From NCBI GenBank assembly GCA_964291315.2, contig OZ219753.1:1462768-1494767 (forward strand): 32,000 nucleotides of DNA. Reading direction: 5' to 3'. This document shows positions 1,961-12,402 of the stretch, piece after piece; the first letter of the stretch is position 1, and every line of letters starts with the position of its first letter. The position numbers and the translations under genes were made by a program. The notes beneath the pieces were generated by a model that was given only the letters and a program-made list of their open reading frames with translations, was not told the DNA's origin and searched no databases. Source of the stretch: Candidatus Poribacteria bacterium (GTDB lineage Bacteria; Poribacteria; WGA-4E; WGA-3G).

Positions 1961-2959
1961 CTATTCTTCGAATGCGGCATCAAATGCCACAGTCGACGGT
2001 TCAAAATCGTAGCCCTTGACAGCATTGCAAGATTCCCGGGCTCCGTGTTCCCTGTCCATACCACTGTCTTCCCACTCAATGGAGAGCGGGCCCTCGTACG
2101 CCATGTTGTTTAGGGCCCGAATAATATCTTCAAAATTGATGTTTCCGCGGCCAATAGATCGGAAGTCCCAATTCCTTCTAGCATCACCAAAGTTCAGGTG
2201 TCCACCAAACACCCCGGACAACCTCGGTGTATTTGCCCACCAGACATCCTTCATGTGCACATGGTAAATCCGATGACTCAACCGTTCAAGGAAGGCGACA
2301 TAGTCGACACCTTGGTATCCGAGATGGCTCGGGTCGTAGTTGAATCCGAACGTTTCTCTGCCGCTGACCGCCTCAACTGCACGTTCTGCAGTGACAATAT
2401 CAAAAGCGATTTCAGTGGGATGCACTTCGAGCCCAAATTTGACACCGACTTCATCAAAAACATCGAAAATCGGGCTCCAACGGTTAGCAAAATCTTCAAA
2501 CCCAGCATCAATTTGTGCAGGATCGTTCGGCGGGAAGGAGTACAACAGATGCCATATAGAACTCCCGGTGAAGCCGTTGACAACGTCTACACCGAGTTTC
2601 GCTGCTGCGCGCGCAGTGTTCTTCATTTCTTCGGCGGCACGTTCTTGAACGCCAATGGGATCACCATCCCCCCAAATTGCTTCTGACAAAATGCCCTGAT
2701 GGCGGCTGTCAATATTATCACAGACGGCTTGTCCAACAAGGTGATTACTGATTGCCCAGACTTTCAGTCCGTATTTCTCGAGGAGATCGTGTCTGCCCTG
2801 ACAGTAACTGTCGTCTGAGAGGGCTTTGTCGACTTCGAAATGATCGCCCCAGCAAGCGAGCTCTAAGCCATCATAGCCCCATCCACCCGCTTTTTCTGCT
2901 AATTCTTCTAATGTTAGATCTGTCCATTGGCCTGTAAAGAGTGTTACAGGTCTTGCCAT
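1961..2959 (-). CDS. sugar phosphate isomerase/epimerase (xylose-isomerase-like TIM barrel)
   Basis: 332-aa ORF of the family typically paired with Gfo/Idh/MocA oxidoreductases ([14 protein letters not shown]..., HPTEIAFD..., VHMKD...). An AAGGAGA RBS lies upstream of the ATG. Confidence 0.85.
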
Positions 2960-3071
2960 AATTGGTCTCCTTAATAGTAGTCTGTCGTAAATGTTAAAAA
3001 TAGAGAGAGGTTTCAGCGGATAACAGTTCCGCCCTTTGGCCCCCGGCCATTAGCAAATAGTAGCGATAAAA

Positions 3072-4061
3072 TTAACTGCGTGCCTGCAAACGCGCGATCT
3101 CCTCTTGGAGTCGGGCAATTTCTAATTCTGCTTTCTGGCGTGCAACGACTTGCTGTTCGGCGTGTGTTTCGGCCTGCTGCGCCCGTGCGGCTTGTTGTTC
3201 GGCGTGTGTTTCGGCTTGCTGCGCCCGTGCGGCTTGTTGTTCGGCGTGTGTTTCGGCTTGCTGCGCCCGTGCGGTTTGCTGTTCGGCGTGTGTTTCGGCC
3301 TGCTGCGCCCGTGCGGTTTGCTGTTCGGCGTGTGTTTCGGCCTGCTGCGCCCGTGTTTCGGCTTGCTCAGCACGCTCAGTTGCTGACTCGGCAGGAGTTT
3401 GCAGCCACTTACCTGCAACCGGGTCATAAATCCCTAAACCCACTTCATTACCAGTTGCGAAGTTATCGTCCCCTTCAAAATATTCACTTGCATCTGGGTC
3501 ATAAATTCCCACGCCTATAGCATCGACATGGAAATCTAAACCGAGGGCAGTAGAATGGACACTTCCGTCTGTCCCTGGCGAGATAGCCACATACCAGCCA
3601 TCAATCAAAGTAAATCCCATGAGAGACGATGGTAAGTATAGCCCCTCCACATCGTACAAGAAATAGTCTTGGATTCCCAATAAAGCATAGAGTTCCATCT
3701 TGCGACTCAAGTCGTTACGATAGGTGCTTTTGCTGGAGAACTCCATCGCGAAATCAGGCGCTTTTCCCTCCTTCCAGACGAGATACGTCCGCCGGGGTTT
3801 CTTACCTAAGCCGAAAGCAACTAGGGCATCTGGCGAGATCGACTTACGTGGATCGCCCTCGACATAATACATGAGGATATCCCCAGAAACATAAACTTCC
3901 GGCATATCTTTAAAATGTGCATCAAGGGCTGCTAAGGTCCGCGTGAGGATACGTCTGTGAAGGTCGCTAACCGCCATAGGTTTTCCATCCGAGTCGGGAT
4001 AAAGTTCCGCCTCCTCTGTAGGGGCATAAGGGATTTGGAGTCGGTGTCGATAGTTTTCCAT
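3072..4061 (-). CDS. Uma2-family (DUF820) putative restriction-type endonuclease with repeat-expanded coiled-coil C-terminus
   Basis: The N-terminal ~130 aa match the Uma2 pattern (SDGKPMAVSDLH..., PDALVAFG..., PDFAMEFSSKST = PD-(D/E)xK-like, LGIQDYFLYD). The C-terminus is AQQAETHAEQQxAR repeats followed by ELEIARLQEEIARLQ. An AAGGAGGG RBS is present. Confidence 0.8.
   Translation of the reverse strand: MENYRHRLQIPYAPTEEAELYPDSDGKPMAVSDLHRRILTRTLAALDAHFKDMPEVYVSGDILMYYVEGDPRKSISPDALVAFGLGKKPRRTYLVWKEGKAPDFAMEFSSKSTYRNDLSRKMELYALLGIQDYFLYDVEGLYLPSSLMGFTLIDGWYVAISPGTDGSVHSTALGLDFHVDAIGVGIYDPDASEYFEGDDNFATGNEVGLGIYDPVAGKWLQTPAESATERAEQAETRAQQAETHAEQQTARAQQAETHAEQQTARAQQAETHAEQQAARAQQAETHAEQQAARAQQAETHAEQQVVARQKAELEIARLQEEIARLQARS
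3138..3371 (-). repeat. in-frame tandem repeat, 42-bp unit x5 (plus a partial unit) inside the Uma2 CDS
   Basis: TTCGGCGTGTGTTTCGG recurs at 3156, 3198, 3240, 3282 and 3324, an exact 42-nt period. The unit encodes the 14-aa repeat AQQAETHAEQQ(T/A)AR. Confidence 0.95.
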
Positions 4062-4114
4062 GGAGATCCCTCCTTTTTTGTTTCATTCTATTTTCTGTGT
4101 AAACCGGTGTTCAA

Positions 4115-5287
4115 CTATTCAGGCGGTCTATAGCTGGCATCAATCCACCCACGTTGTTTACCGCTTTCAACAGCGGCATTGATGAAGTGGACACCGCGTG
4201 CCCCGTCTTGGACGGTCGGAAAATCTGTGTCAAATTCGCCTGGTGCCTCGCCTGCAATTTTTGCTGACATTGTCCGCGCAGCGTTAACATAGATATTCGC
4301 GAACGCCTCAATAAACGCCTCAGGGTGTCCGAAGGGTATCCGTGTATTGTGCTGAACGACCTCTGCCAAATAGTCGTTACCGCGCTTGTAGACCTGTTCG
4401 GGGCGGTCCGGAAATCGGACGTAGAGATAGTTTGGGTTCTCCTGCTGCCATTCTAAGGAGGCATCGGTGCCGTAGACGCGGATACGGAGGTTGTTTTCCT
4501 CACCTACTGAGATTTGCGAGGCATAAAGCACGCCGCGCACCCCATTTTCATAATGTACCAATAGGTTGCCATCATCTTCTAACAGACGTCCCTCTACAAA
4601 CGTGGTCATGTCGGCACATAGTTCTTCGATGTCGAGCCCAGTAATATAATGCGCCAAATTTTCTGCATGAGAACCAATATCTCCGATGCACGAAGAGGCA
4701 CCGGCTTGCTTGGGATCAGTGCGCCAGACGGCTTGTTTCGCGCCTTCGTCTTCCAAAAATGTGGCGAGCCATCCCTGTGGATATTCTACAACGATCTTCC
4801 GAAGTGTTCCGAGTTTCCCTTCTTTCACAAGTTGGCGCGCCTGCTTCACCATGGGGTAGCCGGTATAATTGTGCGTGAGGGCGAAGACGACATCATGCTC
4901 TTCGACGAGACGGCAGAGGATCTCGGCATCGGCAACAGTGGTCGTCATAGGTTTATCACAAACGATGTGAAAACCCGCCTCAATAAAGGTTTTAGCGACA
5001 TCGAAATGCACATGATTTGGGGTTACAATTGAGACAAAGTCAATACGTTCGTCTTCGGAAAGTTGTCTCTCTTTTTCTGCCATTTCCTTATAGGAGCCAT
5101 AAACCCTATTTGGATCTAAGAAGAGTTCAGCCCCTTGCTGGCGAGATTTTTCGGGAGAGGATGAGAATGCCCCGGCGACGAGGTCTATTTCCCCATCAAG
5201 CGCCGCGGCTTTTCGATGCACTGCACCGATGAACGCATCAGGACCCCCACCCACCATGCCATAACGGATTTTTCTACCAAGTGGCAT
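4115..5287 (-). CDS. Gfo/Idh/MocA family oxidoreductase
   Basis: N-terminal Rossmann motif IRYGMVGGGPDAFIG. A conserved (E/D)KP motif is present (IVCDKPMT). Length is typical at 390 aa. Confidence 0.9.
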   Translation of the reverse strand: MPLGRKIRYGMVGGGPDAFIGAVHRKAAALDGEIDLVAGAFSSSPEKSRQQGAELFLDPNRVYGSYKEMAEKERQLSEDERIDFVSIVTPNHVHFDVAKTFIEAGFHIVCDKPMTTTVADAEILCRLVEEHDVVFALTHNYTGYPMVKQARQLVKEGKLGTLRKIVVEYPQGWLATFLEDEGAKQAVWRTDPKQAGASSCIGDIGSHAENLAHYITGLDIEELCADMTTFVEGRLLEDDGNLLVHYENGVRGVLYASQISVGEENNLRIRVYGTDASLEWQQENPNYLYVRFPDRPEQVYKRGNDYLAEVVQHNTRIPFGHPEAFIEAFANIYVNAARTMSAKIAGEAPGEFDTDFPTVQDGARGVHFINAAVESGKQRGWIDASYRPPE

Positions 5288-5344: not shown

Positions 5345-7093
5345 TCATATCTTATCCTTTTTTTCAAGATCTTTTGAGGCATTGGTCTGCTTTCCACGCC
5401 CCGATTTCGCGTTGTGATGAGGCTGTGATTGGTCTGTAATAACCGTCTCCTCGCCGAGCATGTCGATGATTTTTACGGCTACGCGGGCATCACGGCGCGG
5501 AAGCGTTACCCTATATTGCCCCTCAACAAAATCGGACTTTCTCTCTGGCACATCACTCTCAACAATTGTGAAATGCTCGCCACTATAGTCTGCGTCAATC
5601 AGAACACAATCAATCTGTGCACGAAAGTCACCCAGCTGTTCGTCAAAGATAGTGCGGTCTAGCTCCATCCGTGCCAAGATGCTCGGGCTTAGGTAATCTG
5701 ACAACGTAATCTTGACGATGAGCCCCACTCTTTCAAAGCTAACCTCTGCTTCAGCAGGGGCATACGTCGTGATACCTTCGCGTTGAATATCACGAACAAT
5801 GAGCTTGTTAATCGGACGATGCCGGTTGGCTCTATCAAGTTCTGCTTGTATGCCGACTTCACTGCCGTTGCACAAGACTGTGATGTTGCGGGTCTCGTCT
5901 GGCGAGTTTCGGAGTTCGTCTTTGATGAGCTGGATATCCAAGCGTGTGAGCGGTTTTCCGAGATCAGCGATTTTGACCAGCGTGCCATCGAGGGTGCCGT
6001 CAAAGAAGGCGGCTTTCCTGTCGGTTTGCACGCCGTATTTAGCGATGAGGATCTGTCTGAGTTCGTGCTGGGTCTGAAAATCGTAGTTATTGATGCGGTA
6101 GTGTGCGATGCCGCGGGTTTGGTGGCTGCTGTTTTGTATTCGTTTGAGAGTTGTCTGTATGGCACCTTTATTGAGGTCAGCGGCGATCCAGCGTCTGCCG
6201 AGTTTGTCGGCTACAGCGGGGGTTGTGCCGCTGCCGACAAAGCAGTCGAGAACAATGGAGTCTTCATTCGTTGATGCGTTAAGAATACGGTCAAGCAGGG
6301 CCTCAGGCTTTTGCGTAGGGTAGTCTTCTCTTTCTTTAGACACATTAATGATGGGTTTTATGTCGTCCCACGTGTCTCTGATATATACGTCTGCAAAATA
6401 GCGACCTTTTTCATCTACCTGTTCATTAAAGAAGGGTTTCTCATAAAAGATACGTTCTTGTAAAGTATGGTGTACATATTTGCTTGACTTAGCATAAAAT
6501 AATAATACATCGTGTTTTCGAGGCCAGGAATTTTTTCCAACTCCGCCTGTACGATAAGACCATATTATTTCATTTTTAAAATTGTCTTCACCAAAAACTT
6601 CATCCAGCAGAAATCTCAAATGATGGGTTTTGCGCCAGTCACAATGTAGATAGAGACTCCCTTTTTCGCTGAGGAGTTCACGCATCAAGAGGAGTCTTTC
6701 ATACATAAATTGGAGGTAGTTGTCATTTGCCCAGATGTCGGTGTATTGTGTCTGCTCAATAACAGTGTGGCCTTCACCTTCTAAGTTCCTCTGATCACCG
6801 CGTAATTTTACTTTTCGCACATAATCTGCCCCGCTAGCAAATGGGGGATCGATATAAATAAGGTCTATCTTCCCACGGAAACCCTGCACAAGAAGTGTGG
6901 AGAGGATCTCCTTGTTATCTCCGTGAAAAATCAGGTTGGGGCCTTCCAAAAATTTATTGTAAGTCGGCTCTCTCTCTGGATTTTCAACGTTATAGGTTTC
7001 TATGAGTTGTGCGGGATAGGCGTTGACTGTGTCGATAGGGCGTTTGCCGACCCAGTGCAGCATCGCTCTCCCTTTAATAGGTGTGATTTTCAT
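5345..7093 (-). CDS. mod: site-specific DNA methyltransferase, beta-class N6/N4 (type III Mod-like), paralog 1
   Basis: Motif IV IYIDPPF precedes motif I LDCFVGSGTT. YPTQKPEALLDRIL is present. A long conserved C-terminal domain ends ...VAVKIIDMLGEE. A Lys-rich 28-aa tail is absent from paralog 2. Confidence 0.9.
   Translation of the reverse strand: MKITPIKGRAMLHWVGKRPIDTVNAYPAQLIETYNVENPEREPTYNKFLEGPNLIFHGDNKEILSTLLVQGFRGKIDLIYIDPPFASGADYVRKVKLRGDQRNLEGEGHTVIEQTQYTDIWANDNYLQFMYERLLLMRELLSEKGSLYLHCDWRKTHHLRFLLDEVFGEDNFKNEIIWSYRTGGVGKNSWPRKHDVLLFYAKSSKYVHHTLQERIFYEKPFFNEQVDEKGRYFADVYIRDTWDDIKPIINVSKEREDYPTQKPEALLDRILNASTNEDSIVLDCFVGSGTTPAVADKLGRRWIAADLNKGAIQTTLKRIQNSSHQTRGIAHYRINNYDFQTQHELRQILIAKYGVQTDRKAAFFDGTLDGTLVKIADLGKPLTRLDIQLIKDELRNSPDETRNITVLCNGSEVGIQAELDRANRHRPINKLIVRDIQREGITTYAPAEAEVSFERVGLIVKITLSDYLSPSILARMELDRTIFDEQLGDFRAQIDCVLIDADYSGEHFTIVESDVPERKSDFVEGQYRVTLPRRDARVAVKIIDMLGEETVITDQSQPHHNAKSGRGKQTNASKDLEKKDKI
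5390..7093 (-). repeat. copy A of a mosaic direct duplication (mod)
   Basis: 5390-6262 aligns with 7912-8784 and 6635-7093 aligns with 9178-9636, with only scattered substitutions. The central segment 6263-6634 shows no evident similarity to 8785-9177. Confidence 0.9.
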
Positions 7094-7151
7094 AAAGGTT
7101 CTCTATAATTTGTGTATTCACTTCGGAGGTTTCCAAATACCCACCGCTGTT

Positions 7152-7373
7152 TTAAGTGCTGACTTCAGCGAGTTGTTCTACCAATTCGCTCGGGTGAATT
7201 GATAGATACTCTCTGACCTCCAAATTCATCCTGTCAATTTCGGCAAGAAAACCACCGACGGACAGGCGATAATTTCGCGGATTGGTTTCGACCTCTCGGA
7301 GTTTTTCGATCTGCCTTTGAAAGTGTCTAATGCGTGCTAACGTTGCCTCAAGTTCTTGAGTGTTCCGAATCAT
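7152..7373 (-). CDS. 73-aa helical, charged hypothetical protein; partner of the upstream nucleotidyltransferase
   Basis: The ATG at 7371-7373 lies 26 nt inside the 3' end of the NTase ORF, a translational-coupling layout. The sequence MIRNTQELEATLARIRHFQRQIEKLREVE... has no HTH or enzymatic motif that I recognise. Confidence 0.45.
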   Translation of the reverse strand: MIRNTQELEATLARIRHFQRQIEKLREVETNPRNYRLSVGGFLAEIDRMNLEVREYLSIHPSELVEQLAEVST

Positions 7374-7812
7374 TATGAATCACCTCAACTATGCCGCGTC
7401 TTGTGTTGTCGCGTCTCATCTGCCAATACTCAACCGTTTCTTGTTCACTGCTGAACGCTGCCAGCTTGCGAATCCAGAAAACACTTGCCCCTAAAACATC
7501 TTGGGCATCTTGATGGTCGAAAATGAGGGCAGCTTCACCATGTACCTGATCTGCATCAAACGAATCCTCCATTAGTAGAAAGATATCTATATCACCAGGA
7601 GTAGGCTTAGCTGTCACGAAAGAGCCGAATACGATAAACCTTGCTACTTTTCCGGTACTGTTTACTAACATGTAAATACGTTCCAATCGTCGTCCAAGGA
7701 GGATTCTTTGCACACTTTTGGTACCAAAATGCTGCAAAATTTCAGTCAACGTCGCTTGATAAATCCCTATTGGGAGATCGCCTTTGTTGTCAAATTCAGG
7801 CCATTTTTTCAT
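7348..7812 (-). CDS. minimal nucleotidyltransferase-fold protein (Pol-beta superfamily, MNT/DUF6932-like)
   Basis: Signature hG[GS]-x9-D-x-D is present in FIVFGSFVTAKPTPGDIDIFLL, followed by the acidic stretch MEDSFDAD. The protein is 154 aa. It lies between the two mod paralogs. Confidence 0.7.
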   Translation of the reverse strand: MKKWPEFDNKGDLPIGIYQATLTEILQHFGTKSVQRILLGRRLERIYMLVNSTGKVARFIVFGSFVTAKPTPGDIDIFLLMEDSFDADQVHGEAALIFDHQDAQDVLGASVFWIRKLAAFSSEQETVEYWQMRRDNTRRGIVEVIHNDSEHSRT

Positions 7813-7868
7813 GTGGATTCGAGTTTAGTTTACCGTTACGTTAGTGTCCTAACAATATTTTCTTATAA

Positions 7869-7898
7869 ACTATACCACATCTACCCAGCAAAAACCAA
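7869..7898 (-). promoter_or_regulatory. candidate sigma70-type promoter with extended -10, upstream of the NTase module
   Basis: The minus strand reads TTGGTT (7893-7898), an 18-nt spacer ending in TGG, then TATAGT (7869-7874). This is about 56 nt upstream of the ATG at 7812. It is a pattern match only. Confidence 0.3.
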
Positions 7899-7911
7899 TT
7901 TCGATAACTGA

Positions 7912-9636
7912 CTTTCCACACCCCGGTTTCGCGTTGCGATGAAGCGGTCATTAGTCTGTAACAACCGTTTCCTCGCCGAGCATGTCGATGATTTTTACGG
8001 CTACGCGGGCATCAGGACGCGGAAGCGTTACCCTATATTGCCCCTCAACAAAATCAGACTTTCTCTCCGGCACATCACTCTCAACAATTGTGAAATGCTC
8101 GCCACTGTAGTCTGTGTCAATCAGAACGCAATCAATCTGTGCCCGAAAGTCGCCCAGCTGTTCGTCAAAGACAGTGCGGTCTAGCTCCATCCGTGCCAAG
8201 ATGCTCGGACTTAGATAATCTGAAAGCGTAATCTTGACGATGAGCCCCACTCTTTCAAAGCTAACCTCTGCTTCAGCGGGGGCATACGTCGTGATACCTT
8301 CGCGTTGAATATCACGAACAATGAGCTTGTTAATCGGACGATGCCGGTTGGCTCTATCAAGTTCTGCTTGTATGCCGACTTCACTGCCGTTGCACAAGAC
8401 TGTGATGTTGCGGGTCTCGTCTGGCGAGTTTCGGAGTTCATCTTTGATGAGCTGGATATCCAAGCGTGTGAGCGGTTTTCCGAGATCAGCGATTTTGACG
8501 AGCGTGCCATCCAGGGTGCCATCAAAGAAGGCGGCTTTGCGGTCGGTTTGCACGCCGTATTTAGCGATGAGGATCTGTTTAAGTTCGTGCTGGGTCTGAA
8601 AATTGTAGTTATTGATGCGGTAGTGTGCGATGCCGCGGGTTTGGTGGCTGCTGTTTTGTATGCGCTTGAGAGTTGTCTGTATGGCGCCTTTATTGAGGTC
8701 AGCGGCGATCCAGCGTCTGCCGAGTTTGTCGGCTACAGCGGGGGTTGTGCCGCTGCCGACAAAGCAGTCGAGAACAATGGAATCTTGGTTACTCGATGCT
8801 TTGAGGATACGGAAAAGAAGGTTTTCGTTTTTCTGAGTGTCAAATCCAGTTTTTTCTGAACTGAAACTCATAATTTGAATAGAGTCCATTCGGTCTATAT
8901 CACTGCAATTCCAGGTATCTTCTATCGGATATCCCGCACCCTTGGGTCTACTGCCATCTCGTCGAACATAATCATCTGCATAAGGGATATACTCCTTGTT
9001 GAAAATAAAGTTGTCCTTATTTTTTGTATAAAAGTAAATGGTATCATGGTTCCTAATCCAATTTTTGGCTTTTGTCTTATAACCTGAGATCCATCCGATA
9101 CGCCAGATGATTTCGCGTTGAAAATTATCTGAGCCAAACACCTCATCAAGAGCAAGACGGAGGTGGTGACTTTTATGCCAGTCACAATGCAGATAGAGAC
9201 TCCCTTTTTCGCTGAGGAGTTCACGCATCAAGAGGAGTCTTTCATACATAAATTGGAGGTAGTTGTCATTTGCCCAGATGTCGGTGTATTGTGTCTGCTC
9301 AATAACAGTGTGGCCTTCACCTTCTAAGTTCCTCTGTCCGCCGCGTAGTTTCACCCTTCGCACGTAATCCGCGCCACTGTCAAATGGAGGGTCGATATAA
9401 ATAAGGTCTATCTTCCCACGGAAACCCTGCACAAGAAGTGTGGAGAGGATCTCCTTGTTATCTCCGTGAAAAATCAGGTTGGGGCCTTCCAAAAATTTAT
9501 CGTAAGTCGGCTCTTTCTCTGGATTTTCAACGTTATAGGTTTCTATGAGTTGTGCGGGATAGGCGTTGACTGTGTCGATAGGGCGTTTGCCGACCCAGTG
9601 CAGCATCGCTCTCCCTTTAACAGGGTTAATTTTCAT
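7912..9636 (-). repeat. copy B of the mosaic direct duplication (mod)
   Basis: See copy A. Homology continues 39 nt past the mod2 stop codon, so 7912-7950 aligns with coding sequence of mod1. Confidence 0.9.
7951..9636 (-). CDS. mod: site-specific DNA methyltransferase, beta-class N6/N4 (type III Mod-like), paralog 2 with a different central cassette
   Basis: IYIDPPF and LDCFVGSGTT are conserved. The central ~130 aa differ from paralog 1 (IIWRIGWISGYKTKAKNW..., GFDTQKNENLLFRIL). An AAGGAG RBS is present. The stop TAA at 7951-7953 corresponds to CAA in paralog 1. Confidence 0.85.
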   Translation of the reverse strand: MKINPVKGRAMLHWVGKRPIDTVNAYPAQLIETYNVENPEKEPTYDKFLEGPNLIFHGDNKEILSTLLVQGFRGKIDLIYIDPPFDSGADYVRRVKLRGGQRNLEGEGHTVIEQTQYTDIWANDNYLQFMYERLLLMRELLSEKGSLYLHCDWHKSHHLRLALDEVFGSDNFQREIIWRIGWISGYKTKAKNWIRNHDTIYFYTKNKDNFIFNKEYIPYADDYVRRDGSRPKGAGYPIEDTWNCSDIDRMDSIQIMSFSSEKTGFDTQKNENLLFRILKASSNQDSIVLDCFVGSGTTPAVADKLGRRWIAADLNKGAIQTTLKRIQNSSHQTRGIAHYRINNYNFQTQHELKQILIAKYGVQTDRKAAFFDGTLDGTLVKIADLGKPLTRLDIQLIKDELRNSPDETRNITVLCNGSEVGIQAELDRANRHRPINKLIVRDIQREGITTYAPAEAEVSFERVGLIVKITLSDYLSPSILARMELDRTVFDEQLGDFRAQIDCVLIDTDYSGEHFTIVESDVPERKSDFVEGQYRVTLPRPDARVAVKIIDMLGEETVVTD

Positions 9637-9738: not shown

Positions 9739-12402
9739 CTACGAGACTTTTACGTTCGTGTTATCATCACGAATCCATGCCAAGACTTTTTGGACGTCCG
9801 GGACATTCTCCTTCATGAATTCTGTATCCGTATAGATGATATGGTATTTGAAACGCTCATTAGATTGCAGCTGCCCTAAGCGTTCTACTGCCTTCTTTTT
9901 TGCTTCTACGCTTGGGTTCATGCGGTCCCTCTCAGACTTTATTTCCACGATATAGAATTCGCCGGTGCTTTTGACAATCACAAAATCCGGAAAATAGCGA
10001 TGATAATTACCGTCATCACCTTTGTATTCAAAGTGGAAATCGGTTTTTTTAGCGTCTGTCAAGCCCCCAGTAAATAGGAATATCTCTACATCTTCTATTG
10101 CGGTATTTAGTGATGCCAAGACAGTCTCAAAAAACTCTCGCTCGGGTTTGGTATCGAAGTTGTAAGGTGTATAGTGAAAACTAAGATTGCGTTGATCAAG
10201 CAAGACATCCGGATTGAACAGCAGCCTGTCGGTTCTCATCCGTTCGAGGTTTCTCTTTTGGATACGTAATCGGTGGATGTAGTCCCCGCGGTCATTTTTT
10301 TCAAAAAGAGGGCTCCCCTCGTCATCGTGCGTATGAATTAGCGCCAGCACTTCAGATACCTCCTCTTCAATCACGCTATAATTTTGTACCTGCCTTTCCA
10401 CTTGTTGGAACAGTGGATAGAGATGTGTGTTCGGAACTTCGGCTTCAGGATAGAGCCCTTTGAGTTTTTTGAGGGTCTGCATAAAAGGTAGGTGGTAGTT
10501 TGCGCTGATGCGTCTTGCCAACGCGTAGCAATCCGTTGTCCGGTGGACCGTCTCAACCGTGTCTGACTCGCCGATGCCAGCGAGAGGAGAGGTACCGCCC
10601 GTTCGCGTGAAACTCGGGGTCAGTAAGTTGCGAATAATCGGGGGCGGTTCTTGCACGTCGGTAGGAATGCTCAACTGGATCTCTGTGGAGGCATCTTCAT
10701 TCCGTACAACACGAGACACAAACCGAGAAATTTCTAGTTTCGGCAATGCCGTTTTACGAATACAGACCTCTATTTCTTCAGTTGCGGCGGTATGCCTGCT
10801 CAGGCTACCGAGGGTTGTACCGAAGTTTTCTTCTAATTCTTTATCTAGAATGGATCTGTTCTTTGTGTCCAAAAAGATTTTAGCAGGGAGCTTGTTGCCT
10901 TCCACCTGACGCAGACACCGCGTTGAGGCTTGTAGAACAAAGTTACTACTTGTTGTCTGTTCTTTTATCAAGGCACAGGCAAAGAGACTCGGACAATTCC
11001 AGCCCTCCACGCCTTTACCGATAAGCAATAGCACACGCTTTTGACTGTCAGGATTGTTAAGTAGGTTGAACTCGTCAATCTCCGATTGACTCGATTTTTG
11101 TGTATTGACAAGTATCTGCGCTGGGCTTTCCCCGATTTTTGCCAGAGCGTTTTCAATATGCAGTTGAGAAGTTTCTAAGTGTTCTTGAGTCTTGAAGTAG
11201 AACGCAATTTTTGCTTTTGCACCGTCGGAAAGTGTTACATCTCCGTAGTGCTCAAAAAATAGGTCTATCACGTTTTGAATAACTTCTTCCTCAGCACCAC
11301 TTCCAATATGGTAGTGAACTATCCCATGGTGAAGACTTTTAAGGATATTGTCCTTTATCCCCTCCGCAAGACTATACCATGCAACGACTTCGCGGAGCAT
11401 CTGCCGCTTATAGTATGGCGTGCCGGTGGTGTTGATAACAGCAATCACGCCTTTCTTCTCTTTGATGTAGTTAACCGTTTCACGTACCCGTTTGAGTTCC
11501 TTGTCCATCCTATTGCCGTAGGTATGGTGTGCCTCGTCCGAGAAAACCCCCAAATTCGGCAGGCTGGCGATTTTTTGGAGACGGAGGTTCGCCTCTAACG
11601 TTGCCTGTTTCTCTTTTTCGGCAAATTCCAATTCCGTTTGATTCGCGCGTCTCCTCACTTTCGACCGAAGAGCGATTTTCTCGGTGTTTGTGATAATAAC
11701 GTTGTAGGTGCTACCGGTTTGAACTTGGATTTCTTTCGCACCTGATTGCGGATAGGTGATTTTAAGGTTGGCGAGAAAGGCACGATGCAGACTAGCAGGC
11801 AGAACCTGATCAAACGGGATCTCGCTAATTTCGCGTAGACTCTCAATAATGGTTGTCCCTGGAGCAAAGACGAGGGCATTCCTCATAAATTCTCCATCCG
11901 GATAGCGCAGACCCATCGCGAATTCGGTCGCAATAATTGTGCCGATAAGCACTGTCTTGCCGGTGCCCATGGCGAGCGCAAAAATATAGCTTGGGTAAGG
12001 AAGCATTACTGCTTCGTGAACGGGATCAATCCGCTTTTGCCTGACGAATGCGGGGTCTTTTTTTATTTTTTCAATAACATCATCCACATTTTGGATCCAT
12101 TGGAGCTCGTTTGGATCCAGTGGAATGCCGAGCGCTTCAAAGAAATCCCGTTTATCCTCGCCGTAATAGTGTTTGTAGAGATCAACAATGTGTGGCGTTT
12201 TTCTCACGAGTCTCAGGAACCAATAGAGTTCCAGCGATTCGAATTGGGGGTGCCGGAGGTATTTGGGAGAAATTCGCTCTTGCGGCTCGCCCTCAAATTG
12301 ATAACGTAGTATCTCGCCGATGAGCGGGTAGTCTGGACAAGGGTATCCTTCGTCGCGCCAGCTTAGTCTGTTTTCGCGGAGTTTTTCAAAAAGGTATTGC
12401 AT
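9739..12402 (-). CDS. res: type III restriction enzyme Res-like subunit (SF2 DEAH helicase with C-terminal PD-(D/E)xK nuclease)
   Basis: Walker A is ALAMGTGKTV, motif II is VFSDEAHH and motif III is NTTGTPY. The C-terminal nuclease motif is YFPDFVIV...FYIVEIKS. Confidence 0.85.
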   Translation of the reverse strand: MQYLFEKLRENRLSWRDEGYPCPDYPLIGEILRYQFEGEPQERISPKYLRHPQFESLELYWFLRLVRKTPHIVDLYKHYYGEDKRDFFEALGIPLDPNELQWIQNVDDVIEKIKKDPAFVRQKRIDPVHEAVMLPYPSYIFALAMGTGKTVLIGTIIATEFAMGLRYPDGEFMRNALVFAPGTTIIESLREISEIPFDQVLPASLHRAFLANLKITYPQSGAKEIQVQTGSTYNVIITNTEKIALRSKVRRRANQTELEFAEKEKQATLEANLRLQKIASLPNLGVFSDEAHHTYGNRMDKELKRVRETVNYIKEKKGVIAVINTTGTPYYKRQMLREVVAWYSLAEGIKDNILKSLHHGIVHYHIGSGAEEEVIQNVIDLFFEHYGDVTLSDGAKAKIAFYFKTQEHLETSQLHIENALAKIGESPAQILVNTQKSSQSEIDEFNLLNNPDSQKRVLLLIGKGVEGWNCPSLFACALIKEQTTSSNFVLQASTRCLRQVEGNKLPAKIFLDTKNRSILDKELEENFGTTLGSLSRHTAATEEIEVCIRKTALPKLEISRFVSRVVRNEDASTEIQLSIPTDVQEPPPIIRNLLTPSFTRTGGTSPLAGIGESDTVETVHRTTDCYALARRISANYHLPFMQTLKKLKGLYPEAEVPNTHLYPLFQQVERQVQNYSVIEEEVSEVLALIHTHDDEGSPLFEKNDRGDYIHRLRIQKRNLERMRTDRLLFNPDVLLDQRNLSFHYTPYNFDTKPEREFFETVLASLNTAIEDVEIFLFTGGLTDAKKTDFHFEYKGDDGNYHRYFPDFVIVKSTGEFYIVEIKSERDRMNPSVEAKKKAVERLGQLQSNERFKYHIIYTDTEFMKENVPDVQKVLAWIRDDNTNVKVS

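Follow-up and report, generated by a model that had tools for sequence, protein, structure and literature searches.

A 32,000-nucleotide (nt) stretch of the Candidatus Poribacteria contig OZ219753.1 (positions 1,462,768 to 1,494,767; hereafter, the window) contains two small overlapping genes, which encode a 154-amino acid (aa) minimal nucleotidyltransferase (NTase) of the Pfam family DUF6932 and a 73-aa helical hairpin, respectively. The pair is located between two mod paralogs of a Type III-like restriction-modification (R-M) locus, and an initial annotation made from the letters alone had proposed it as a candidate toxin-antitoxin (TA) or defence module. Our analysis showed that the two genes are kept together across distant bacterial taxa and that the NTase gene decays while its partner remains intact. 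On balance, we favor a TA-like, toxin-first module: the DUF6932 NTase would act as the toxin, and the hairpin, which has lost its DNA-binding domain, would neutralise it.

Conservation of the pair and one-sided decay

Both open reading frames (ORFs) and their 26-nt overlap were present as proposed (Table 1). A survey of the neighborhoods of NTase homologues located a partner of ~70 aa directly 3' of the NTase gene in 12/12 genome loci, and the partner was also present in 74/74 metagenome loci having sequence downstream; the metagenome set consisted of 80 loci found through the NTase. Of 59 metagenome loci in which the NTase was intact, 53 had an overlap of 26, 14, or 8 nt between the two genes, and 57 had ATG as the start codon of the partner. 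The pairwise divergences of the NTase and the partner co-varied (rho 0.60, p 0.004). The pair was found in Poribacteria, Syntrophobacteraceae, Planctomycetota, and Acidobacteriota, as well as in many soil and sediment metagenomes. It occurred in multiple copies, was patchily distributed over phyla, and had variable neighbors, including transposases flanking one copy (locus L120; L numbers are our locus handles). Small, co-oriented, adjacent genes whose pairing is kept across distant taxa and in varying contexts are what is expected of a type II-like TA system, and this is what we observed. The pair is thus a conserved module of two translationally coupled genes that behaves like a TA system, which supports this part of the initial proposal.

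The two genes differed in their decay. In the 69 non-duplicate metagenome loci evaluable for both genes, a set anchored on the NTase and hence biased against seeing NTase loss, both genes were intact in 54, the NTase was disrupted beside an intact partner in 14, and both were disrupted in 1, with no locus (0) in which an intact NTase accompanied a disrupted partner. The asymmetry was significant in a gene-length-weighted binomial test (p = 0.017) and also after the genome loci L003, L010, L011, and L012 were added (p = 0.0045). Three further loci (L026, L028, and L029) contained NTase deletions or a 22-nt duplication, whereas their partner protein was the same as in intact loci. Having been found through the partner, these three loci were left out of the count. 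This pattern fits a dispensable NTase and a partner that is not an NTase-dependent toxin, and it argues against a reversed, HEPN/MNT-like model in which the partner is the toxin.

Four independent NTase disruptions were located at codons 59-68 (KVARFIVFGS). The 22-nt tandem duplication of L028 (~4712-4733) and the transposase-bearing insertions of L011 (~4083-5000) and L012 (~2129-5000) hit these codons, and the NTase of L082 is interrupted at 2459-2587 by a 130-nt insert resembling a miniature inverted-repeat transposable element, with inverted ends GATTCTGCTGAAAAACC and flanked by AAGATTC. Codons 59-68 may be a preferred insertion site. A phage origin of the pair was considered and rejected: a tblastn search of 50,697 phage records gave no match, IMG/VR contained no relative, and the folds matched in BFVD were marginal.

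The nucleotidyltransferase

The NTase matched DUF6932 (PF22014; 90.8 bits versus a cut-off of 27, E 1.5e-25) along its entire length, with residues 5-144 aligned to positions 1-141 of the 142-position model. It also weakly matched the PADLOC candidate PDC-M63A (8.5e-8 over 120 residues) and phrog_9194 (7e-7); DUF6932, PDC-M63A, and phrog_9194 are all catalogue entries without assigned function. The initial statement that the pair fits no known family was thus wrong for the NTase, which is a plain DUF6932 member resembling PDC-M63A. Its family is already catalogued yet uncharacterised, and our literature search found no paper mentioning DUF6932 or PF22014. More than 1,170 homologues were detected, the nearest of which were from Candidatus Poribacteria.

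The catalytic motif, FIVFGSFVTAKPTPGDIDIFLL, comprises residues 59-80. G63, S64, D74, and D76, which correspond to the hG[GS]-x9-DxD signature recognised in the initial annotation, were invariant in 60 close homologues and in relatives at 27-29% identity. No other acidic column that could supply a third catalytic carboxylate was invariant in an alignment including distant DUF6932 members. In the AlphaFold2 (AF2) model (pLDDT 83), a helix is followed by strands at 56-62 and 75-81. The protein therefore has the hG[GS]...DxD signature on an alpha/beta NTase core that characterizes the Pol-beta superfamily. The scores for the Pfam models NTP_transf_2 (19.2 bits versus 21) and Polbeta (20.6 bits versus 26.9) were below threshold, and no PDB chain was found by sequence or profile search for either the NTase or its partner. 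The top PDB folds in a Foldseek search were the MntA antitoxins 7aer_A, 6m6u, and 8xeo, at a marginal level (probability 0.96, E ~7e-3, TM 0.32-0.48); aminoglycoside NTases and CCA-adding enzymes were also among the matches. MenT (DUF1814) and AbiEii are NTases that act as TA toxins; they are about twice the size of the window NTase and belong to another family, and no DUF1814 match was returned for the window NTase in Pfam.

The hairpin partner

The partner was modeled by AF2 with high confidence (pLDDT 92) as a hairpin of two helices plus a short third one (helices 5-28, 32-59, and 61-72). More than 1,170 close homologues were found, and the family contains at least 478 clusters at 50% identity, all of them small proteins. 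There was no match in Pfam, NCBIfam, PADLOC, PHROGs, or PDB, and a Foldseek search of PDB returned generic helical hairpins (best E 0.6). No PADLOC family was assigned to the window partner, nor to the majority of 86 members of its family, and the families that were returned did not include PDC-M63B; the partner family is uncatalogued.

Across 150 family representatives, the conserved residues were R14, R26, E29, N31, P32, N34, Y35, G41, E45, D47, R48, and M49, which are concentrated in the turn of the hairpin and in helix 2. We considered a mini-HEPN protein with the motif R54-x5-H60, which includes Y56, and rejected it: H60 was present in 48%, R54 in 75%, and Y56 in 73% of the representatives, and no HEPN match was obtained by Pfam, PDB sequence, or Foldseek searches. 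Nor was there an HTH, RHH, or AbrB match that would indicate a DNA-binding domain for autoregulation. Conservation and profile searches thus agree with the initial annotation that the partner is neither a HEPN nor an HTH protein.

Pfam matches to Unstab_antitox and ParE_toxin, which we had considered as features of the partner family, were traced to single chimeras: P0301 joins the hairpin to the C-terminus of an addiction-module antidote (Unstab_antitox), and P0341 joins it to ParE. P0270 is an in-frame fusion of the C-terminal half of the NTase with the hairpin. The family also includes C-terminal variants, 97-102 aa or 151 aa long, that match nothing in Pfam. These variants and chimeras were drawn from P0243, P0244, P0274, P0270, P0301, and P0341 and from L121 (6440-6895).

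Relation to Xre-type partners and PD-lambda-2

Distant DUF6932 genes (25-42% identity; 141-150 bits to DUF6932) were found on plasmids. In Calothrix and Aulosira, the DUF6932 gene is followed, with a 4-nt overlap, by a gene for a 171-172-aa protein with HTH_3 at residues 87-139, and in Agrobacterium by a gene for a 420-aa Xre + Peptidase_M78 protein. In a HMMER search, the 73-aa family profile matched the N-terminal 70 residues of the Aulosira HTH protein (27.5 bits). The hhalign score was 95.0% against the single Aulosira sequence and 95.7% (E 9e-9) when 41 aligned cyanobacterial partners were used in its place, with residues 1-59 aligned to 1-63; the N-terminus of the Agrobacterium partner was related to the 73-aa family only weakly (hhalign, 8%). 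From these alignments to the N-termini of HTH partners, the 73-aa protein is the hairpin portion of an Xre-type partner whose HTH has been lost; contrary to the initial view that it fits no known family, it is a shortened form of a recognisable type of partner. The hairpin would be the partner-specific domain of longer hairpin + Xre-HTH proteins, some with an added M78 peptidase. The window pair and the cyanobacterial and Agrobacterium loci share the NTase family, the gene order, and the overlap, and their hairpins are homologous; however, the window partner ends after the hairpin, with no HTH_3 or M78 peptidase domain, and there is no third gene for a Beta protein. The cyanobacterial-plasmid DUF6932/HTH_3 pairs have a toxin-first, Xre-second order and occur also as tandem copies. 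The same toxin-first, Xre-second order is found in higBA.

The Coleofasciculus loci L036-L038 (3576-5556) contain two tandem pairs of DUF6932 and hairpin-HTH genes. The NTase calls in the three strains were 141, 101, and 82 aa and 148, 148, and 113 aa, and the first HTH partner was identical in all three, which suggests NTase decay.

On the Agrobacterium plasmid, the Xre-M78 gene is homologous to PD-lambda-2 B (E 6.7e-75) and is followed by a homologue of PD-lambda-2 C (E 4.7e-37). PD-lambda-2 has been shown experimentally to be a TA-like abortive-infection system with a HigB-like A gene (PMC9519451). Since the B and C homologues follow DUF6932 in Agrobacterium, DUF6932 occupies the slot of a toxin-like gene. 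The canonical system differs in that its first gene is HigB-like rather than an NTase and in that B is its toxic component. The window NTase and partner matched no PD-Lambda-2 model, and no Beta-protein or Xre-M78 homologue was found in the window. For the candidate system PDC-M63, the A component was weakly matched by the window NTase, and the B component was not matched by the window partner. A further comparison is the Xre-MNT pair of Streptococcus suis, in which an Xre-type protein is the antitoxin of an NTase (PMC8406773); unlike in the window, the Xre gene is first, the enzyme is KNTase-like, and toxicity appears only upon periplasmic export.

In the same Agrobacterium tumefaciens plasmid (pAt1D1460; L035, 1-6186), a helicase gene and a DRT6-like reverse transcriptase gene adjoin the DUF6932, B, and C genes, and an sce7726-family gene is located on the opposite strand. 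This region looks like a small defence island with an NTase variant of PD-lambda-2.

Proposed function of the pair

We infer that the 154-aa DUF6932 enzyme is an active minimal NTase and the toxic, or effector, component of the module, and that the 73-aa hairpin, made in a fixed ratio through translational coupling, neutralises it by binding. By analogy with MenT and AbiEii, the substrate would be RNA such as tRNA, or else protein. Since the window partner has no DNA-binding domain, autoregulation, if any, would work differently from that of the Xre-HTH partners. Within Poribacteria, the module is mobile and present in several copies, and its position between res/mod1 and mod2 reflects a lineage-specific insertion spot that also gathers other TA genes.

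Several observations weigh against this interpretation. A partner without a DNA-binding domain is unusual for a type II antitoxin, and we found no experimental study of any DUF6932 protein. The related candidate PDC-M63AB gave no defence in E. coli NILS69. In PD-lambda-2, the Xre-peptidase B alone was toxic and was rescued by the HigB-like A (PMC9519451), so the slot analogy does not fix which of the two partners is harmful. The frameshifts in metagenome and long-read sequences may be sequencing errors, although such errors would not spare the partner. Finally, the recurrence of TIR-TPR and FRG-TPR genes upstream of the pair, described below, suggests that it may not always act alone.

Locus layout and genomic context

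The pair is flanked by mod paralogs in direct orientation (window 5345-9636). A blastn comparison of the two halves revealed two repeat blocks, 5390-6299 with 7912-8821 (910 bp, 94.7%) and 6552-7093 with 9096-9636 (542 bp, 90.6%), which leave a non-duplicated junction of 818 bp (7094-7911) carrying the pair, exactly as the initial annotation had described. Its description of the mod copies as near-identical was less accurate: the proteins are 82% identical, and a central stretch of ~250 bp is unrelated between the copies (6300-6551 versus 8822-9095). This stretch presumably encodes the target-recognition domain, and recombination across the repeats could remove the pair or exchange specificities. 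Relative to mod2, mod1 ends 21 codons earlier. The partner stop codon lies 58 nt from the start of mod2, with no same-strand terminator predicted between them, and L001 repeats the partner-then-mod order with a 27-nt gap; mod2 may therefore be read through from the promoter of the pair. After an oxidoreductase gene, ~1.3 kb past mod2, a 329-aa protein (window 3072-4061) has an N-terminal Uma2 domain (putative restriction endonuclease-like) and weak PADLOC PDC-S03 matches.

Table 1. Coordinates of the features of the gene pair, its flanking genes, and the TPR genes upstream of related pairs
Feature	Sequence	Position	Strand	Remarks
NTase gene	Window	7348..7812	-	154-aa ORF; minimal nucleotidyltransferase, Pfam DUF6932; proposed toxic/effector component
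Partner gene	Window	7152..7373	-	73-aa ORF; helical hairpin; proposed neutraliser
ORF overlap	Window	7348..7373	-	26 nt; translational coupling
GAGG, Shine-Dalgarno-like	Window	7383..7386	-	9 nt 5' of partner ATG
Catalytic signature G63-S64-x9-D74-x-D76	Window	7585..7626	-	Invariance in homologues
NTase leader	Window	7813..7868	-	~55 nt 5' of NTase ATG; conserved across loci (11-locus alignment)
Candidate promoter	Window	7869..7898	-	TGgTATAGT 7869-7877, TTGGTT 7893-7898; sequence resemblance
mod1	Window	7951..9636	-	561-aa Type III-like N6/N4 methyltransferase; context
mod2	Window	5345..7093	-	582-aa mod paralog, different central region; context, possibly co-transcribed
res	Window	9739..12402	-	887 aa, helicase + C-terminal nuclease-like region; context
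FRG+TPR gene	L001	1826-3052		18 nt upstream of pair
TIR-TPR gene	L119	4084-5982
TIR-TPR gene	L122	3912-5849
TIR-TPR gene	L014	3629-5356
TIR-TPR gene	L121	3462-5975
TIR-TPR gene	L011	1322-3856

In the closest relatives, the pair is likewise located between orthologous res and mod genes. The gene order is res, HNH, FRG-TPR, NTase, partner, and mod in L001; NTase, partner, and mod in L002; and NTase remnants, partner, a 188-aa gene, and mod in L026 and L029. In L025-L032, a gene for an LRR protein stands in place of mod and res is kept; res orthologues of 60-69% identity were found upstream of the pair in these loci and in L039. Beyond this one orthologous locus, no association with res and mod emerged, and it was confined to the Poribacteria lineage of the window. 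A res homologue was present in 1/80 metagenome loci and a mod homologue in 0/80. Other Poribacteria copies sit among housekeeping genes, transposases, or TIR-TPR genes, and R-M neighbors were lacking at most Poribacteria copies and at all distant relatives examined. The link of the pair to R-M is positional and limited to one Poribacteria lineage.

The interval between res and the pair contains other TA genes. In L025 (3642-4523) and also in L026-L032, it carries a gene for a ParE-like toxin, preceded by a 72-aa gene, and in L025-L032 it contains in addition a 108-aa HI1420-antidote-like gene; a HigA-like antidote gene was read from the sequence of this interval in L003 (4483-4884). In this respect, the res-mod interval acts as a TA-gene hotspot.

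TPR genes are found directly upstream of many Poribacteria copies of the pair. In eight further locus types (L004/L022, L005, L006, L011, L014, L119, L121, and L122), a TIR_2+TPR protein of 575-844 aa is encoded at a gap of 18-644 nt from the NTase gene, and the TIR domains of these loci have diverged to 44-93% identity. L001, the closest relative of the window, has an FRG-TPR gene in this position, and FRG remnants are present in L025-L032 and L039. The C-terminal TPR tail is common to both types, with a TIR or an FRG head alternating at the N-terminus. No TIR, FRG, or TPR gene was found in the window. TPR proteins are very abundant in Poribacteria. The upstream gene may reflect either inherited synteny or a true three-gene system.

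Alternative explanations

The shared TPR tail with its swapped TIR or FRG head, together with the FRG-TPR gene of the closest relative and the recurrent TIR-TPR genes, would be explained if the pair were the remnant of a three-gene Poribacteria system (effector-TPR, NTase, and hairpin) whose first gene has been replaced by mod1 in the window, leaving the pair orphaned or rewired; the three products might cooperate as, e.g., a sensor/effector and its regulator. We consider this rather unlikely: the window itself has no such gene, matches upstream were TPR-only and limited to 4/79 other metagenome loci (L041, L042, L053, and L112), the cyanobacterial and Agrobacterium relatives have none, and the divergences of the TIR domain and the NTase did not co-vary significantly (rho 0.37, p 0.10). 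Given the abundance of TPR proteins in these bacteria, the adjacency may also be inherited synteny. An extension of this idea, to which we assign a slightly lower likelihood, is that the Poribacteria pair forms the last two genes of an undescribed three-gene immune system that begins with a TPR sensor bearing a swappable TIR or FRG head; the pair would arm, license, or restrain the effector and, in the window, would have been re-used at the Type III-like R-M locus to drive another mod allele, one whose recognition domain differs. The initial annotation had instead suggested a tie of the pair to R-M, as a stabiliser of the island or a modifier of Mod or Res. An accessory role at the Type III-like locus, through controller-like regulation of mod2, modification of Mod, Res, or incoming DNA, or island stabilisation, would agree with the res-mod location of the pair in the window, L001, L002, L026, and L029 and with the short distance to the following mod gene, in which no terminator was predicted. 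However, these loci are orthologous and thus represent one association event, mod gave way to an LRR gene in L025-L032, and the gap accumulates ParE-like and HigA-like genes in the manner of an insertion hotspot. The near absence of res and mod from the metagenome loci, the lack of R-M neighbors elsewhere, and the lack of an HTH in the partner further argue against a functional tie, which we regard as very unlikely.

Two other alternatives concern the division of labor within the pair. HEPN/MNT systems of type VII (Shewanella SO_3165/SO_3166, MntA-HepT) have a Pol-beta NTase first and an overlapping gene for a small helical protein second, and MntA is the best structural match of the window NTase. 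By this analogy, the helical protein would be toxic and the NTase would be an antitoxin that nucleotidylylates it at Y35 or Y56, tyrosines present in 86% and 73% of the family representatives, respectively. In contrast to these systems, the window partner is not a HEPN protein and its sole Rx5H (R54...H60) is unconserved, the NTase is under the NTP_transf_2 and Polbeta thresholds, and the fold matches to MntA are marginal. The homology of the partner to the N-terminus of Xre-type regulators also argues against this reversal of roles. Furthermore, the decay in the window family marks the NTase, not the partner, as losable; inactivation of the NTase beside an identical intact partner, as is often observed, would be lethal if the partner were an NTase-dependent toxin. 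We give this arrangement the least credence. It is also improbable, if less so, that the NTase is non-toxic, a modifier of small molecules or nucleic acids of the resistance or repair type that is merely tuned by a hairpin regulator or chaperone. Many minimal NTases are not toxins, aminoglycoside NTases and CCA-adding enzymes appear among the fold matches, and frequent loss would be expected of a dispensable accessory enzyme as well; however, the strictly paired and overlapping antitoxin-like partner, the plasmid location and tandem duplication of relatives, the PD-lambda-2-like context, and the other TA genes nearby are more in keeping with the toxin-first, TA-like module.

Upstream region of the NTase gene

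An extended -10 promoter had been proposed for the pair at 7869-7898. The string is indeed present, with a weak TTGGTT; however, a consensus scan reported no sigma-70 site within 6900-8200, and the stretch was poorly conserved in an alignment of 11 loci. A perfect palindrome, CATTGCAATG, is present in the NTase leader of many loci (e.g., L014 5935-6000), and the window copy is degenerate (TGTTAGGACAC). The palindrome is a possible operator or promoter element.

Implications

In annotating the window, the NTase/partner pair should not be read as R-M machinery. If the toxin-first, TA-like module is correct, DUF6932 would represent a new family of small NTase toxins with more than a thousand homologues, and its antidote would be the toxin-binding hairpin of an Xre-type antitoxin alone, a natural separation of neutralisation from DNA binding. 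It would also provide the first functional handle on PDC-M63 and on PD-lambda-2-like systems in which an NTase replaces HigB, and a functional handle on the very large set of defence and TA systems found in sponge symbionts.

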